Positions 1-5,190 of a stretch of 64,000 nucleotides of DNA are shown here, piece after piece. A program made the translations under genes and the position numbers. Numbering within the stretch: the first letter of the stretch is position 1; each line of letters starts with the position of its first letter. The DNA lies in assembly GCF_002087085.1 (NCBI RefSeq), contig NZ_MWQY01000009.1:124001-188000 (forward strand). The letters run 5' to 3'. A model generated the notes under the pieces. That model was not told the DNA's origin. It saw only the letters and a program-made list of their open reading frames with translations, and did not search any database.

Positions 1-716
1 CTGTCCACAACTGCCCGCAGGTTGATCGGGATTCCCGCCGCCAGAGCCGCGTCGATCCCCCGGACGATCCGGTCAAAGGTGGCACCGCCTCCATGCAGGG
101 GACGCCGTCTGTCATGGACCACCCCCACCCCGTCGAGGGTAACCTGGACCTCCCGGATACTAGCTGAGGATAAAAGGGGAATATAGTTCTCCAGCTCATA
201 CCCGTTGGTCACAACCGCTACGCTCAGCTTACGATCCGCCGCCTTTGTCAGGATTCTCTCCAGCACATTCCGGGAAGCTGAGGAAGGGAGGAGGGGCTCG
301 CCGCCGAAAACAGTTATGTACTTTTTTCGTCCCGCCAGTTCCGTATCGAGCCAGCGGAAAAAAGCATCGGTAAGCTCCGGATTACGGCTGTCGTTCGCGT
401 GGTCATAACTCTCCTGGTAACAGTAGGAGCAGGCAAAGTTGCAGGCATAGGTGGGGACAAAGAAAACCTGAACCTCCTCCGCTTCCCTGGCTTCGATAAA
501 AGAGAGGTAAGCATTGCGATAACGCCTGTTTTCTTCCCCTTCATCAGACAGGTAACCCTTTTCAATGAACTCCGTCGGATCCGCGATGTTTCCCTTTTCA
601 TACTCCCGGGCCAGTTCCGGGGAAAGGATATCCGCCTGCTTTGACAGGGGATTCAGCAGGATATAATTATCCGAGTCCTTCAGTTTCCTGAAGATGTTAT
701 GTTTCGAGCGGGTCAT
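1..716 (-). CDS. Radical SAM peptide-maturase-like protein (anSME/SPASM-type core, RRE-like N-terminal extension); 3' end beyond the window
   Basis: Not in the ORF track. Manual translation from the ATG at 716 gives MTRSKHNIFRKLKDSDNYILLNPLSK...VPTYACNFACSYCYQ (CxxxCxxC at aa 92-99, nt 420-443)...VFGGEPLL...VVTNGY...VQVTLDG...H..RRP...TFDRI...INLRAVVD, open to the window edge. Confidence 0.92.
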   Translation of the reverse strand, partial: MTRSKHNIFRKLKDSDNYILLNPLSKQADILSPELAREYEKGNIADPTEFIEKGYLSDEGEENRRYRNAYLSFIEAREAEEVQVFFVPTYACNFACSYCYQESYDHANDSRNPELTDAFFRWLDTELAGRKKYITVFGGEPLLPSSASRNVLERILTKAADRKLSVAVVTNGYELENYIPLLSSASIREVQVTLDGVGVVHDRRRPLHGGGATFDRIVRGIDAALAAGIPINLRAVVD

Positions 717-746
717 TTTCTCTTCCTGAGCTTTGTAATCTAAAGT

Positions 747-770
747 TCCCGGGGGAGTACTCCCCCGGGA
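747..770. promoter_or_regulatory. Perfect 24-nt palindrome / intercistronic stem-loop between peptide gene and radical SAM gene
   Basis: TCCCGGGGGAGT|ACTCCCCCGGGA lies 8 nt downstream of the peptide stop; only a weak U-tract follows on the minus strand. Confidence 0.75.
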
Positions 771-778
771 TGCAGGTC

Positions 779-886
779 CTAATCGTGGCAGCCCGCGACA
801 ATCTTTGAGGTCTTGGCGCAGCACTGGGCTACGGCCTGACCGGAAGAAGGAGTCTTCTTCACCAGGGAAAGCATTTTTTTCTTCAT
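779..886 (-). CDS. Putative RiPP precursor peptide, 35 aa: MKKKMLSLVKKTPSSGQAVAQCCAKTSKIVAGCHD
   Basis: Below the ORF-track cutoff. ATG at 886 is preceded by AAGGAG-ACAGGC; TAG at 781-779. It fills the gap between the methyltransferase and the rSAM gene on the same strand and has a basic leader plus a C-terminal CC-x9-C core. Confidence 0.8.
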   Translation of the reverse strand: MKKKMLSLVKKTPSSGQAVAQCCAKTSKIVAGCHD

Positions 887-921
887 GCCTGTCTCCTTAT
901 CTCCTCTTCAATTATATAGTA

Positions 922-1599
922 TCAGCTTTTCTTTCCGGGCTTGTATCCCCGGATAGTCCAGCTGGATACTTCAATTTCTCCCTTGGGGTAGGGAGCGCTC
1001 TCTTCCAGAACGCTGATTTCGGCGAAGCCGGCGTTCTGAAGATGCATAAGGTATTCATCACGGGTTACGGAACCCGCCCAGCATTCCGCGACCGCCTCCG
1101 GGTCGTTACGGTATTTTTCCGGGACCGGCGCGGTACTGTAAATGTCGCTCACCACAAAACGTCCACCGGGCTTGAGTATGCGGAATACCTCGTTCCAGAC
1201 CTTCTGTTTGTCCTCGGCATGATTGATGGTGCAGTTGCTGATAACCAGATCAACCGTTGCATCATCGAGCTTCAGGTGTTCCAGGTCGGTTTTAATTACC
1301 TGTCCGTTGCTGATGCCGAATTTCTCCAGGTTGCGTTCAGCTTTGCGGATCATACCATCGGATATATCGATTCCGATAACCCGCCCGCCCGTACCTGTCT
1401 CTTCCGCGAGGCGTATCAGGTCGAGACCCCGGCCGCTGCCCAGATCGACGCAGGTCTCTCCAGGGGCAGCTGCCGCATGGTTGATGGCACCTCCACAGGA
1501 GAGACAGCAGGATGTTTCTGCCAGCTCACTGTATCGTACATTTATACTGCTGACCGTGCTTTGCGACTGTGCAGTGCAGCAGGATTGTGTTTCCGTCAT
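922..1599 (-). CDS. arsM: ArsM-like class I SAM-dependent (arsenite) methyltransferase
   Basis: VDLGSGRG SAM-binding motif, ISNCTIN, ILKPGGRFVVSD, ECWAG and LSCGG match ArsM Cys-bearing motifs. Start at ATG 1599 with AGGGAG RBS; the track's 1644 start overlaps marR. Confidence 0.78.
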   Translation of the reverse strand: MTETQSCCTAQSQSTVSSINVRYSELAETSCCLSCGGAINHAAAAPGETCVDLGSGRGLDLIRLAEETGTGGRVIGIDISDGMIRKAERNLEKFGISNGQVIKTDLEHLKLDDATVDLVISNCTINHAEDKQKVWNEVFRILKPGGRFVVSDIYSTAPVPEKYRNDPEAVAECWAGSVTRDEYLMHLQNAGFAEISVLEESAPYPKGEIEVSSWTIRGYKPGKKS

Positions 1600-1636
1600 A
1601 TCATCTCCCTGTATAGTTCTCTTTGAAGTCCGGGTA

Positions 1637-2077
1637 TCATACAACCTGCAGCAGAAGTTTCATGCCCTGTCGAACCTGTTCGATCTGCCTGGTGTCAAGC
1701 TTTTCAAGGAAATCACGTTCGCAGGTGTCCTTTATCCGGCTGAGATCCTTCAGATGCTCCTTCCCTGCAGAGGAAAGTCGTATTATTGAGCTGCGCCGGT
1801 CATCGGCATCCTGTTCCGAAACGAGCAGTCCCCGGTCAAGAAGGCCTCCGATAATACGGCTTCCTCTGGATGTTGAGACCCCGAGCCTCATGGACAGCTC
1901 CTTTGAGCTCATGCTGATATTATTCAGCAGGAAAATCGTCATGACCTCCCGGGGGGAAAGTCCGTATCTGCTGCCGATTTTTTCCTCGATATTACAGCGG
2001 TTTTTGAAGTCTATTACGAGATCGATAAGTCGTTCAGGTTGTTTAAGCGCTTCGTTGCCCACAGCAATTGTTGCCAT
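1637..2077 (-). CDS. MarR-family transcriptional regulator
   Basis: Winged-HTH pattern LS.RE...ELS.RLGVS.S..SRII..L..RGLL...DDRRS..I.LS..G; two Cys residues. Confidence 0.88.
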   Translation of the reverse strand: MATIAVGNEALKQPERLIDLVIDFKNRCNIEEKIGSRYGLSPREVMTIFLLNNISMSSKELSMRLGVSTSRGSRIIGGLLDRGLLVSEQDADDRRSSIIRLSSAGKEHLKDLSRIKDTCERDFLEKLDTRQIEQVRQGMKLLLQVV

Positions 2078-2084
2078 GAGCAAC
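2054..2084. promoter_or_regulatory. Tandem inverted-repeat operator (2x GTTGC-N5-GCAAY) overlapping the marR start
   Basis: GTTGCccacaGCAAT (2054-2068) and GTTGCcatgaGCAAC (2070-2084); minus-strand TTGACA at 2112-2107 just upstream. Confidence 0.65.
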
Positions 2085-2157
2085 TAATATCAGTTATATA
2101 ACTTTTTGTCAATATGGTTTTTTTATTATATTATTCCTCAAAGGCAAAGGCTGCCAA

Positions 2158-2667
2158 TCAACGTGTCTTCCCCCGGGTCTTATCAAGAAATATCGCCTTT
2201 ATGCCCCCCTTGTCGAGGATATTCATGGCGTAGGAGGAGAGCTTCTCCCCTTCAAGGACTTTTCCAGTCCGGGAATTAGTAACGGTCCCCTGTTCCAGAT
2301 CGATTTTTAGTGTGTCTCCGCTTTCCACCCGGGAGGAAATTCCCTTGCACACCAGAAGCGGCAGGGCCAGGTTGATGGCGTTGCGGTAAAAGATGCGGGC
2401 AAAGGACTCGGCCACCACCGCCGCAACGCCGGCATGCTTCAGTGCTATGGCTGCGTGCTCCCGGCTCGAGCCGCAGCCGAAGTTTGTACCCGCAACGACG
2501 ATGTCCCCGGGCTGAAGCTTTGAGGCGAAGGAGGGATCAGCCCCCTCAAGGCAGTGCCGGGCTATCTCGTCAGGTTCCACCAGCTCGAGGTACTGTCCCG
2601 GGTAGATCTGGTCCGTGTCTATGTTTTTTCCAAAGAGGTGGGCTTTTCCTGTGTATCCGGTCTTCAT
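2158..2667 (-). CDS. leuD: 3-isopropylmalate dehydratase/homoaconitase-family small subunit
   Basis: [18 protein letters not shown] and [12 protein letters not shown] motifs. Confidence 0.88.
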
Positions 2668-3938
2668 ACTGATGCTCCTTGAGGGGTGTCGAGGTATTTG
2701 CCGGGATCCGCCAGGCTGCCTTCCAGGGCGGAGGCGGCCACCAGGGCCGGGGAACCAAGGTAGATCTCTGCTTCCGGGCTTCCCATGCGTCCCGGGAAAT
2801 TTCTGTTCGTGGAGGAGACGCAGACTTCTCCCCTGGCCAGGATTCCCGCATGAGTCCCCAGGCAGGGGCCGCAGCCGGGGGCGTTGAAGGTTGCACCGGC
2901 TTCGATCAGGGTCTGTACGTAGCCCTTTTCCATGGCTTTTTTGTATACCTCCATGGAGGCTGGAATTACGACCATCCGCGTGGCAGGGGCTATTTTCCTT
3001 CCCTTTACCACCTGTGCCGCAGCCTCCAGGTCCTCCAGACGTCCGCCGGTACAGGAACCGATGAATGCCTGGTCCACCTTCACCGGGGAAACCTCCGAAA
3101 AAGGAAACACATTGTCCACACTGTGGGGACAGGCAAGCTGGGGCTCCAGGGAGGATACATCGAAGAAGTGCTCCCCGGCGTAGGTGTAGCCCGGATCGGT
3201 CTCGTCCAGGATGTAATCAGTCCCGAAACGCTCTTCCACGTAATCCAGCACGGCCCGGTTGGGCTTCATCCAGGCGGTCTTGGCTCCCATTTCCACCGCC
3301 ATATTGCAGACGGCCATCCGCTCCGATACCCCCAGGCCTTCCACGTACTCCCCGCAGAACTCCACCGCCTGGTAGACCGCCGCATCCGCCTTGAGCTTTC
3401 CGATGATGTGAAGAATCACATCCTTGGCATAGACCCCGGTCCGGGGCTTGCCGGTAATCTCGATTTTTATTACTTCCGGGACCCTGAACCAGAGTTCCCC
3501 GGATATCAGCACCGTGGCAGCGTCGGTTGCCCCGATTCCGGTACCGAAGGCCCCGAAGGCCCCGTGGGTAGTTGTATGGGAATCCGTGGCCACCAGGATC
3601 ATACCCGGACGGATCAGCCCAGCCTCGGGCATAACCTGATGACAGACCCCTGCATTGATATCAAAGTGATGGGTAAGGCCCTGTTCCCTGGCGAAGTCCC
3701 GCATCTCCTTGTGGATCTGGGCGGTGCGTATCGTCGGGGCCGGGGAATAATGGTCAAATACAAAAGATATCTTCGTCGGGTCCCAGACCTTTGTGCCTCC
3801 CATCTCGTAAAAGGAACGGACCACCTGAAGGTACAAATCGTTGAGTTCGATAAAATCAACCGAGCAGTTCAGGATCTCCCCGGGTGTAACGGAATCGACC
3901 CCCGCCGCCCGGGCGAGCATCTTTTCTACTGCGTGCAC
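2664..3938 (-). CDS. leuC: 3-isopropylmalate dehydratase/homoaconitase-family large subunit
   Basis: DSHTTTHGA, FIGSCTGGR, CGPCLG and STNRNFPGRMG motifs; GTG start with AAGGAG RBS. Confidence 0.88.
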   Translation of the reverse strand: MHAVEKMLARAAGVDSVTPGEILNCSVDFIELNDLYLQVVRSFYEMGGTKVWDPTKISFVFDHYSPAPTIRTAQIHKEMRDFAREQGLTHHFDINAGVCHQVMPEAGLIRPGMILVATDSHTTTHGAFGAFGTGIGATDAATVLISGELWFRVPEVIKIEITGKPRTGVYAKDVILHIIGKLKADAAVYQAVEFCGEYVEGLGVSERMAVCNMAVEMGAKTAWMKPNRAVLDYVEERFGTDYILDETDPGYTYAGEHFFDVSSLEPQLACPHSVDNVFPFSEVSPVKVDQAFIGSCTGGRLEDLEAAAQVVKGRKIAPATRMVVIPASMEVYKKAMEKGYVQTLIEAGATFNAPGCGPCLGTHAGILARGEVCVSSTNRNFPGRMGSPEAEIYLGSPALVAASALEGSLADPGKYLDTPQGASV

Positions 3939-4080
3939 TGAAATCTCCTTATTCTATAATATCAGGGACAGTATAGCAGAGAAAATACCGGGAGGGGGAT
4001 CGATCTTCAGCTAGAAAAACAGCGGTTTTTTGCTGACTCCCATGGTATAAAGATAGAGTAGTCAACCCAGGGAGGTACCC

Positions 4081-5190
4081 ATGATACTAGGCTGTCCAAA
4101 GGAAATAAAAAAGCAGGAATACCGGGTGGGACTGACGCCCCACTGCGTTTCCGCCTATTCCCGGCGGGGACACAAGGTTCTGGTTCAGAAAGGAGCCGGG
4201 GAAGGTTCCGGTTTCGAGGACCAGGAATACGCGGAAGCGGGAGCCAGACTCGTGGAGACAGCCGCGGAAGCCTGGGCCGCCGATATGGTGGTCAAGGTAA
4301 AGGAACCCCTGCCGGAGGAGTATCGGTTCTTCCGCAGAGACCTGATTCTCTATACCTATCTGCACCTGGCTGCGGCGGAGGAATTGACCCGGGAGATGCT
4401 CGAAACGAAGGTAAAAGGTATCGCCTATGAAACAATCCAGACCGATGACGGGCACCTGCCCTGTCTTACACCCATGAGCGAGATCGCAGGACGACTGAGC
4501 GTACAGGAGGGGGCCAAGTACCTGGAAAAGACCTTCGGAGGCCGGGGTGTTCTGCTGGGAGGGGTCCCTGGAGTCGAACGCGGAAAGGTGGCCATCCTCG
4601 GCGGCGGTGTCGTCGGCATGAACGCCTGTAAAATCGCCGTAGGCATGGGAGCGGAGGTAACCATCCTGGATATCAGCACAGCCCGGCTGGCCTACATGGA
4701 CGATATATTCCAGACGCAGATAACAACCCTGGTTTCCAGTGAACGGAATATTGAAAAGATCGCCCGGGAGAGCGATGTGATTATAGGGGCAGTCCTGATT
4801 CCCGGAGCAAAAGCACCGCGGCTGATCCGGAGGGAACACCTCAAGCTGATGAAAAAAGGCGCCGTGCTGGTGGATGTCGCCGTGGACCAGGGGGGCTGCT
4901 TCGAAACAACCAGGGCCACCTATCATGATGACCCGGTCTATCTTGTGGATAATGTAATCCATTACTGCGTGGCAAATATGCCCGGTGCCGTCGCCCGCAC
5001 ATCCACCCTGGCCCTGACAAACGCCACCCTGAACCATGGCCTGCTCCTTGCCGACAGGGGGGTGGAAGCCGCCTGCGCGGAATCAGCCCCTTTACGAAGG
5101 GGTCTGAACACCCTCGACGGCAGATGCACCCACCGGGGTGTGGCGGAGGCCTTCGGCATCGCCTACACCGATCCCGCAACACTGCTATAG
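4081..5190 (+). CDS. ald: Alanine dehydrogenase
   Basis: PKEIK.QE.RVGL, KVKEP, YLHLAA, GGGVVG, DVAVDQGG and HYCVANMPGAV motifs. Confidence 0.96.
   Translation: MILGCPKEIKKQEYRVGLTPHCVSAYSRRGHKVLVQKGAGEGSGFEDQEYAEAGARLVETAAEAWAADMVVKVKEPLPEEYRFFRRDLILYTYLHLAAAEELTREMLETKVKGIAYETIQTDDGHLPCLTPMSEIAGRLSVQEGAKYLEKTFGGRGVLLGGVPGVERGKVAILGGGVVGMNACKIAVGMGAEVTILDISTARLAYMDDIFQTQITTLVSSERNIEKIARESDVIIGAVLIPGAKAPRLIRREHLKLMKKGAVLVDVAVDQGGCFETTRATYHDDPVYLVDNVIHYCVANMPGAVARTSTLALTNATLNHGLLLADRGVEAACAESAPLRRGLNTLDGRCTHRGVAEAFGIAYTDPATLL

Follow-up and report, generated by a model that had tools for sequence, protein, structure and literature searches.

The locus described here raises the question of what an enzyme resembling the arsenite methyltransferase ArsM is doing next to a very short cysteine-rich peptide, in an operon that also encodes a radical S-adenosylmethionine (SAM) enzyme. 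The genes lie at the left end of the window, by which we mean the whole 64,000-nucleotide stretch of DNA that was analyzed (C79:124001-188000), and the 12 kb to the left of it were also read. An earlier note on this DNA had pointed to four co-oriented, tightly spaced minus-strand genes within positions 1-2112. This arrangement is confirmed, with intergenic gaps of 37, 35, and 62 nucleotides (nt), and the gene labels given then, MarR, ArsM-like, and radical SAM, match the results obtained with Pfam and NCBIfam. The sequence to the left of the window adds a gene that is absent from that note, a thioredoxin-thioredoxin reductase fusion (Trx-TrxR), and this is the fourth member of a conserved core. 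The operon is a self-contained accessory unit, and the four genes of its core encode the methyltransferase, the peptide, the radical SAM enzyme, and Trx-TrxR. Our proposal, which we put forward tentatively and with doubt slightly outweighing belief, is that this core produces a cysteine-rich peptide which is modified after translation and put to use inside the cell.

The conserved gene set and its peptide

Which of these genes belong together can be read from their conservation. A profile built from 12 homologues of the radical SAM enzyme found 548 relatives in contigs from one genome per species, and the best 80 loci, labelled Spirochaetota, Bacteroidota, Ignavibacteriota, and, for one genome, Deltaproteobacteria, were used for comparison. 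An ArsM-like gene is present in all 80 (tblastn, E ≤ 1e-3) and Trx-TrxR in 78 (tblastn), the two exceptions being a contig that ends just past the radical SAM gene (L016) and a locus with no Trx-TrxR in its flank (L027). The peptide was recovered in 78 of the 80 loci by tblastn (E ≤ 1e-3) and in all 80 by a relaxed search for open reading frames (ORFs), 7-239 nt upstream of the radical SAM gene. The usual order is methyltransferase, peptide, radical SAM enzyme, and Trx-TrxR, with Trx-TrxR lying upstream instead in four loci. The search was also anchored on the peptide itself, using a 31-position profile run in six frames against 401 Spirochaetota genomes, of which 44 (~11%, from 27 of the 153 genera) were positive. 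Thirty loci were returned, 29 of them beyond the window's own, and a methyltransferase and a radical SAM enzyme stand beside the peptide in every one. The co-occurrence of ArsM-like gene, peptide, and radical SAM gene, for which the earlier note had suggested a neighborhood search, extends to every one of the 80 and of the 29 loci, and to six divergent loci besides. The absence of conserved synteny, which that note would have taken as a refutation, is decisively contradicted. No cassette genes surround the weakest peptide match (G023, E 6e-4), which was rejected as a false positive.

The six divergent loci (L126-L131, in the Spirochaetota genomes G050, G012, G110, G035, G160, and G125) keep the order methyltransferase-peptide-radical SAM-Trx-TrxR, even though identity to the window's proteins is down to 32-38% for the radical SAM enzyme, 30-39% for the methyltransferase, and 45-52% for Trx-TrxR. 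The genes that flank the cassette vary from locus to locus, and because they are unrelated, the four core genes travel as one unit. The radical SAM gene is present in three of the six genomes of the window's own genus, and the cassette is therefore accessory. One rearranged locus was also seen (L132, G063:C75), where the ArsM-like and radical SAM genes are 69 nt apart and the peptide lies ~1.5 kb off on the opposite strand; Trx-TrxR is still nearby, and all four core genes are together.

In the window the peptide ORF (779-886, minus strand) encodes 35 residues from the first ATG (MKKKMLSLVKKTPSSGQAVAQCCAKTSKIVAGCHD), and an AAGGAG box is located 6 nt 5' of the peptide ATG. Relatives start at the position of the fifth residue, so the gene product is, from this alignment, probably a peptide of 31 residues (779-874) rather than 35. 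It has a Lys-rich N-terminus and a C-terminal core, AQCCAK-x-S-x4-GCHD, that ends at the stop codon. Across 63 aligned peptides (consensus MKSLIKKK-x5-KVAQCCAKxSKxVAGCHD), residues L8, A20, C22, C23, A24, K25, G32, C33, and H34 are invariant and M5, Q21, S27, and D35 are nearly so, while the C-termini in the 80 loci read GCHD-stop in 79 cases and GCHN-stop in one. That this is a real gene follows from the use of every synonymous codon at the invariant residues. Specifically, in 79 unique 51-nt tails from several phyla there are nine positions without any amino-acid change at which all of the synonymous codons are used, the invariant Ala and Gly positions using all four codons and the Cys positions both. 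Codon usage shows that the 31-residue peptide is encoded by a genuine gene and that strong purifying selection acts on it. No family among the Pfam and NCBIfam models matched the peptide (NCBIfam at E ≤ 0.01, SCIFF model included). A lookup in the ESM Atlas gave only 'hypothetical protein' clusters (66, 553, and 53 members; score 0.87), which are not evidence, and a Bacteriocin_CLI3235 lead from the same source (score 0.79) was weak and was likewise not used.

The enzymes, the operon, and its surroundings

The radical SAM gene (1-716, minus strand, with its start at 716) runs off the left end of the window, which holds the first 238 of its 438 residues; the whole gene occupies C79:123400-124716, the left part being outside the window. 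The earlier description of it as a CxxxCxxC/GGEP enzyme is borne out by the motifs CNFACSYC (the CX3CX2C cluster motif) and FGGEP (SAM-binding), in which C92, C96, C99, and G138-P141 do not vary among the 12 aligned sequences, and Pfam Radical_SAM is matched at E 8.5e-19 by the part in the window and at E 9e-20 by the complete protein. The earlier note had also advised reading the sequence to the left for SPASM cysteines, a protease, and an exporter. The first were found, in that the completed protein has a seven-Cys SPASM region (C331, C349, C388, C391, C397, C401, and C417, invariant in 12 of 12 aligned homologues) with the spacing C-x17-(G-x4-)C ... C-x2-C-x5-C-x3-C ... C; the others were not, as no exporter or leader peptidase is linked to the cassette. 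The Pfam SPASM model gave no match to the protein at E ≤ 0.001, and the Pfam PqqD model gave none either.

Comparison with NCBIfam produced 71 matches, and in all of the best 25 the enzyme is by far below the curated cut-off: it scores 129 bits with CefB (cut-off 600), 117 with TIGR04463 (525), 103 with the geopeptide maturase family (400), 101 with PapB (340), 80 with the SCIFF maturase (425), 71 with MftC (265), and 57 with a QhpD-type model (453). The best of these matches (CefB, TIGR04463, geopeptide, PapB, and SCIFF) are all maturases of Cys-rich or thioether peptides, and among solved proteins the one nearest in sequence is the thioether-forming CteB (5wgg, E 4.6e-18). An AlphaFold2 (AF2) model, built from 12 sequences, has a mean predicted local distance difference test score (pLDDT) of 65, with low confidence in the SPASM part. 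Within it, residues 8-79 form three strands followed by three helices (pLDDT 73-91), and this N-terminal domain aligns only to CteB (Z 17.3, 352 residues, model 4-418) and TigE (model 1-420) among solved chains. The modeled β3-α3 domain is like that expected of a recognition element (RRE) for peptides that are made by the ribosome and modified after translation (RiPPs). We regard the radical SAM enzyme as well supported as a CteB-like SPASM peptide maturase with an RRE-like N-terminus and a conserved cognate peptide, and the peptide is very probably its substrate. The pair had been assigned in the earlier note to the sactipeptide/ranthipeptide type of RiPP, and of this the coupling of a peptide with an RRE-like/SPASM radical SAM enzyme stands. 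The likeness does not extend to the typical secreted antibiotics of that type, since the peptide has a core that hardly varies from phylum to phylum and neither exporter nor protease is linked.

The methyltransferase gene (922-1599, minus strand) encodes a class I SAM-dependent enzyme of 225 residues from its ATG. Its cysteines are C31/C32 (a CC pair), C35 (in LSCGG), C123 (SNCTINH), and C173 (ECWAGS), of which C31, C35, C123, and C173 are invariant in 63 orthologues, as are, very nearly, C32 and C50. The As(III)-binding cysteines of ArsM are those numbered C72, C174, and C224 in CmArsM, plus an upstream Cys. When the enzyme is aligned to the solved ArsM 5evj, C35 falls on GCGNP, C123 on SNCVIN, and C173 on ECLAGA. 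These three are retained in the divergent clade, where the upstream CC pair that the main clade keeps is lost. The AF2 model is of high confidence (pLDDT 90.9), and in a Foldseek search of the PDB the listed ranks 1-13 are all ArsM/AS3MT, human AS3MT included, with query-normalized TM scores of 0.70-0.74; the top five phmmer matches are ArsM/AS3MT as well. The protein is shortened, as the stretch from the CC pair to the GCG motif is ~33 residues shorter and the C-terminal domain is missing, and it reaches 196-198 bits with the NCBIfam arsenite methyltransferase model NF008823, under the cut-off of 263. Judged by these residues and similarities, the methyltransferase is a member of the ArsM clade in which the As(III)-binding cysteines are kept, as the earlier note had supposed. 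It is also somewhat more likely than not that the enzyme acts on or with the peptide.

The fourth core gene, Trx-TrxR (C79:122117-123403, 428 residues), is to the left of the window and directly downstream of the radical SAM gene. It encodes a thioredoxin domain (CPPC) fused to a thioredoxin reductase (CATC), each motif being present in 70 of 71 orthologues, and scores 313 bits with TIGR01292, slightly under the cut-off of 343. The disulfide cycle of ArsM/AS3MT depends on thioredoxin. The same genome has a housekeeping thioredoxin reductase and a third one elsewhere, and the cassette Trx-TrxR is therefore private to the cassette.

Related domain combinations were found outside the cassette. 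Natural fusions of ~803 residues (P0242, P0244, P0248, and P0249) consist of PqqD(RRE), Radical_SAM, SPASM, and an ArsM-type domain, begin with M-x-K-x-CC, and have GCGNP, SNCVINL, and ACLSGA intact. They occur in 41 metagenome loci (L134-L174), in which tblastn gave no match to the window's Trx-TrxR or peptide. A gene for a 494-residue B12-binding radical SAM protein follows the fusion in 10 of 10 loci examined, and a gene for a sigma54/GAF-type activator lies upstream in seven of the ten, both being Pfam-confirmed at L135 only. The radical SAM part is only 22-27% identical to the window's enzyme, so the fusions are a different system, and their existence means that ArsM-type domains have been joined to peptide-binding SPASM radical SAM enzymes more than once. 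In another protein, P0245 (1047 residues), a radical SAM domain and an ArsM-type methyltransferase are combined with DUF5714 and a linker that has three CC pairs and resembles the cassette peptide. An apparent ArsM-radical SAM fusion of 724 residues (P0241) has no in-frame CC peptide and was rejected as a likely read-through gene call.

In the window's genome the operon runs in the order MarR, ArsM-like methyltransferase, peptide, hairpin, radical SAM/SPASM enzyme, Trx-TrxR, and DUF1847. The MarR-family regulator (1637-2083, minus strand, 148 residues) matches Pfam MarR_2 at E 2.1e-10 and is preceded by a sigma-70-like promoter, TTGGCA-16-AATAAT (2157-2130, minus strand, 10/12 consensus). Of the 80 loci, 21 have a homologue upstream of the cassette, all of them with Spirochaetota-type labels, and a Crp-family regulator takes its place in some Bacteroidota loci; MarR is a lineage-specific accessory gene outside the conserved core. 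Just past the stop codon of the peptide gene there is a perfect 10-bp GC-rich, terminator-like hairpin (747-770, minus strand). A hairpin directly follows the peptide stop codon in related loci also, and the peptide-radical SAM spacers there fold with z ≤ -2 relative to shuffled sequences in 57 of 76 cases (median minimum free energy -23 kcal/mol). The hairpin is a probable attenuator, or a stabilizer of the mRNA 3' end, between the peptide and maturase genes, and a hairpin placed between precursor and enzyme genes is the layout of operons that produce more precursor than enzyme. A second match obtained when the own genome was searched with the whole region proved to be the hairpin matching itself.

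The cassette region was found in six metatranscriptome runs from three studies, and a single RNA-library contig covers 272-1989. The assembled contigs of four runs end at 1989-2052, and 2073-2200, upstream of MarR, is covered by none, which is a weak hint of a promoter at this position. Differences in contig depth were set aside, as depth cannot rank genes; this applies to a contig with the peptide at depth 33 beside neighbors at 5-10 (X17) and to a depth of 19 upstream compared with 3 downstream of the hairpin (X18).

The last gene of the operon, for a DUF1847 protein (C79:121556-122101, left of the window, E 2e-30), recurs in 20 of the 80 loci and has a terminator-like hairpin downstream of it. 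Beyond this, on the same strand, translations show a 1027-residue sensor kinase with many β-propeller-like repeats and a LuxR-type response regulator (L003 5766-9492), neither of which is conserved with the cassette. On the other side, ORFs at 2158-2667 and 2664-3938 resemble, by eye, the small and large subunits of a 3-isopropylmalate/homoaconitate-type dehydratase, and one at 4081-5190 on the opposite strand resembles alanine dehydrogenase; the ORFs at 2158-5190 are housekeeping genes unrelated to the cassette. In other genomes the accessory genes linked to the cassette recurrently encode thioredoxins, OsmC, DUF302, DUF1847, DUF6132, Fer4_5, and a pyridine-nucleotide disulfide oxidoreductase, and some loci have a second Trx-TrxR beside the cassette. 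In seven Bacteroidales loci (L035, L040, L048, L049, L055, L067, and L069) the cassette is situated within a larger thiol-redox island, with OsmC, a Trx-like gene, a second Trx-TrxR, Trx, and (Fer4_5, DUF6132) before it, and DUF302, a pyridine-nucleotide disulfide oxidoreductase, Fer4_5, and Trx after it.

Proposed mechanism and its alternatives

In the mechanism that we propose for the cassette, the radical SAM enzyme would bind the Lys-rich N-terminal part of the peptide by means of its putative RRE and would install one or more thioether-type (ranthionine-like) cross-links in the AQCCAKxS....GCHD core, a thioether being the most likely product because of the family resemblance of the enzyme. 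The methyltransferase keeps the three metalloid-binding cysteines, and for this reason it would act on a soft metalloid bound by thiols, with As(III) as the likeliest one. Free peptide thiols may then present the metalloid to the methyltransferase or receive it from that enzyme, so that the peptide would be a dedicated carrier or partner in bacteria that do not have glutathione. Trx-TrxR, with NAD(P)H, would re-reduce the disulfides of the methyltransferase, of the peptide, or of both in every cycle. The product would stay in the cell with its leader attached, as neither an exporter nor a leader peptidase is linked. A less likely variant is that the methyltransferase acts on the peptide's own thiol or carboxylate. 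The proposed partnership between the two is consistent with a difference between the clades: the divergent methyltransferase is without the CC pair and its peptide carries a second one (SCCxTA...AQCC), and a CC pair lost in the enzyme and gained in the peptide is what is expected if the peptide supplies cysteines in trans. Read from the motifs, the involvement of a metalloid in the cassette is possible, although we lean somewhat towards doubting it, and a link to arsenic in particular is plausible.

Several points weigh against this proposal. The recurrent neighbor clusters of the cassette include no ArsR, Acr3/ArsB, ArsC, or ArsA/D, and the same ars genes are absent from the 55 nearest non-core neighbors scanned, of 211 candidates. 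The regulators of the cassette are of the MarR or Crp type, not ArsR, and the accessory genes that recur with it fit general thiol-redox stress no less than arsenic. Elsewhere in the genome, on C7 (71942-75742), is a canonical ArsM that scores 331 bits with NF008823, above the cut-off, and is preceded by an ArsR-like helix-turn-helix gene, with Acr3 separately on C11. The score of the cassette enzyme is, as given above, under that cut-off. Both of its clades share SNCx[IV]NH where canonical ArsM has SNCVxNL, plus NDPxA[VI]A[ED]C[WYF], and such derived residues beside two of the As-binding cysteines may imply a different substrate. A thioether that uses up a cysteine leaves fewer thiols for a metalloid. 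The complementarity of CC pairs was seen in six loci, which are related to one another, and two such pairs occur in some main-clade peptides as well. Finally, the RNA data are assembled contigs, for which carry-over of DNA is possible and a single transcript is unproven. As to the ArsM on C7, a selenoprotein reading was considered and rejected, the TGA at the end of the ORF being most simply its stop codon.

The foremost alternative dispenses with arsenic. The radical SAM enzyme would cross-link the peptide, and the ArsM-derived enzyme would have been repurposed as a peptide-tailoring methyltransferase, acting by S-methylation of Cys or by O-methylation of the invariant C-terminal Asp; its cysteines would hold the peptide, for example through a bound metal or a mixed disulfide, and Trx-TrxR would keep both reduced. 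Class I methyltransferases are common RiPP tailoring enzymes, and among the weak PDB matches of the cassette enzyme is the lanthipeptide C-terminal methyltransferase LahSB (E 3.6e-7). The Asp directly before the stop codon is present in 78 of the 79 unique tails, and fusions of this type of methyltransferase with PqqD/SPASM radical SAM enzymes exist. The missing ars genes and ArsR, the ArsR-ArsM pair elsewhere in the genome, the score under the ArsM cut-off, and the clade-specific residues beside the active-site cysteines are all as this alternative would have them. It leaves unexplained, however, why neither clade shows any change in the three As(III)-binding cysteines across ~65% sequence divergence and why Trx-TrxR is conserved along with the other genes (78 of 80 loci), and the closest structures are clearly the solved ArsM/AS3MT chains. 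We consider it unlikely, though likelier than the alternatives that follow.

At the other extreme, arsenic could be part of the maturation itself. In one form of this idea, As(III) would be held by the three core thiols, a peptide carbon radical made by the radical SAM enzyme would be captured at the arsenic or at an adjacent thiol, the bound arsenic would be methylated, and Trx-TrxR would reset the thiols. If true, this would be the first ribosomal peptide with a metalloid involved in its maturation, and sediment-dwelling anaerobes would widely contain its product, either an organoarsenical RiPP or a peptide-bound methylarsenical carrier; we rate this as quite unlikely. The stricter form, a version of the organoarsenical RiPP raised in the earlier note and a parallel to ArsL/ArsM in arsinothricin biosynthesis, in which the thiols chelate As(III), a peptide carbon radical is captured by the arsenic to give a C-As bond, and the ArsM-like enzyme methylates the product, is very unlikely. 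Arsinothricin biosynthesis (PMC8552651; bioRxiv 10.1101/2024.02.01.577332) offers a precedent in which ArsM is paired with a radical SAM enzyme for C-As chemistry, the conserved CC...C set of the peptide could, from its sequence, bind As(III), the methyltransferase retains its As-binding cysteines, and Trx-TrxR fits the redox cycle of ArsM. On the other hand, the cassette's radical SAM enzyme is a canonical CX3CX2C/SPASM protein, and all of its nearest relatives form cross-links of the thioether or C-C kind, whereas ArsL is described as noncanonical and as transferring a SAM fragment, and the ArsL/ArsS models are absent among the best 25 of the 71 NCBIfam matches. Nor is any gene for arsenic uptake, efflux, or regulation linked to the cassette. 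To our knowledge, there is no known chemistry in which a radical is captured by peptide-bound arsenic.

A still more remote prospect is that two unrelated modules happen to adjoin, the methyltransferase and Trx-TrxR serving metalloid or thiol methylation and the peptide and radical SAM enzyme making a ranthipeptide. The connection between methyltransferase and peptide is seen here at the level of the genes, which leaves room for such a view, but the peptide gene is between the genes of the two enzymes at each of the 80 and of the 29 loci, and in the divergent clade alike, while the flanks are unrelated between loci and the rearranged locus L132 still keeps all four genes. Lastly, a chance spacer ORF from which no peptide is produced, a view that could appeal to its shortness, to its lack of a known family, and to a Shine-Dalgarno-like box in just 36 of 79 loci, is effectively refuted by the nine invariant residues with all synonymous codons in 79 sequences, by a stop codon that always comes directly after GCHD or GCHN, and by a peptide profile that gives a single match per genome with E down to 3e-17.

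Meaning and relation to known systems

If the preferred reading, that of a modified peptide made and used within the cell, is true, then a widespread gene set, present in many anaerobic bacteria, connects the machinery of a RiPP with a methyltransferase of the arsenic type and with a thioredoxin system of its own. The cassette is present in ~11% of the sampled Spirochaetota species genomes, and many Bacteroidota and Ignavibacteriota are also among the best 80 of the 548 relatives. The near-invariant core and the lack of export genes suggest a peptide at work inside the cell, as a carrier, a cofactor, or the partner of an enzyme, and not a variable antibiotic, and we know of few peptide systems of such a kind. 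Non-canonical 'ArsM' genes of anaerobes are often counted as markers of arsenic methylation in metagenomes. Whatever its chemistry, the cassette implies that ArsM-like genes of this type should not count as plain arsenite methyltransferases in environmental surveys, and it is a testable entry to the roles of non-canonical 'ArsM' genes in anaerobes and of conserved SCIFF-like peptides. It is unusual for a radical SAM/SPASM-peptide pair to be coupled obligatorily with an enzyme of the ArsM clade and with a thioredoxin system of its own. None of the core proteins attains a curated cut-off in NCBIfam, and publicly they go by the names 'radical SAM protein', 'methyltransferase domain-containing protein', 'arsenite methyltransferase', and 'UbiE'. 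No description of the cassette was found in the literature, subscription-only papers and supplements (e.g. radical SAM sequence-similarity networks) being outside the scope, and the motif strings QCCAK, CCAKTS, and CCAKNS do not occur in the literature examined. A review (PMC13188914) covers ArsM-like selenoproteins and not this cassette.

Parts of the cassette resemble known systems. The methyltransferase has the fold, the three As(III)-binding cysteines, and, in the main clade, the CC pair of canonical ArsM/AS3MT, and it differs from these in being shorter, in its SNCxINH and NDPxAxAEC[WY] signatures, and in having no linkage to ArsR or efflux genes. The placing of an ArsM-type methyltransferase gene next to a radical SAM gene is shared with the ArsL/ArsM pair of arsinothricin and the ArsS/ArsM pair of arsenosugar biosynthesis. 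The ArsL and ArsS enzymes use SAM-derived fragments on arsenic, either inorganic or methylated, and are not known to have a peptide substrate, an RRE, or a SPASM domain, whereas the cassette enzyme is of the peptide-maturase type with a peptide of its own.

Among the peptide maturases, CefB and TIGR04463 are the best-scoring curated families, and their alignments span nearly the whole radical SAM enzyme, including the N-terminus; unlike them, the cassette enzyme scores far below their cut-offs and its peptide has no repeat with a Cys at every fifth position. PqqA/PqqE, MftA/MftC, and QhpC/QhpD share with the cassette a near-invariant core peptide, a radical SAM/SPASM maturase, linked redox enzymes, and an intracellular product, the last being proposed here for the cassette. 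They differ from it in the low scores obtained (MftC and the QhpD-type model), in the cofactor-releasing peptidase, of which none is linked here, and in the patchy distribution of the cassette. The SCIFF peptides of Clostridia have six Cys, compared with three Cys and a C-terminal GCHD in the cassette peptide, which does not match the SCIFF model. Unlike SCIFF, the cassette obligatorily has the ArsM-clade methyltransferase and the Trx-TrxR fusion, and its hosts are Spirochaetota, Bacteroidota, Ignavibacteriota, and one Deltaproteobacteria-labelled genome. What the cassette has in common with SCIFF/CteB is that the gene directly upstream of an RRE-like/SPASM radical SAM enzyme encodes a Cys-rich peptide that is short and highly conserved, and in SCIFF systems, too, no exporter or protease is known to be linked.

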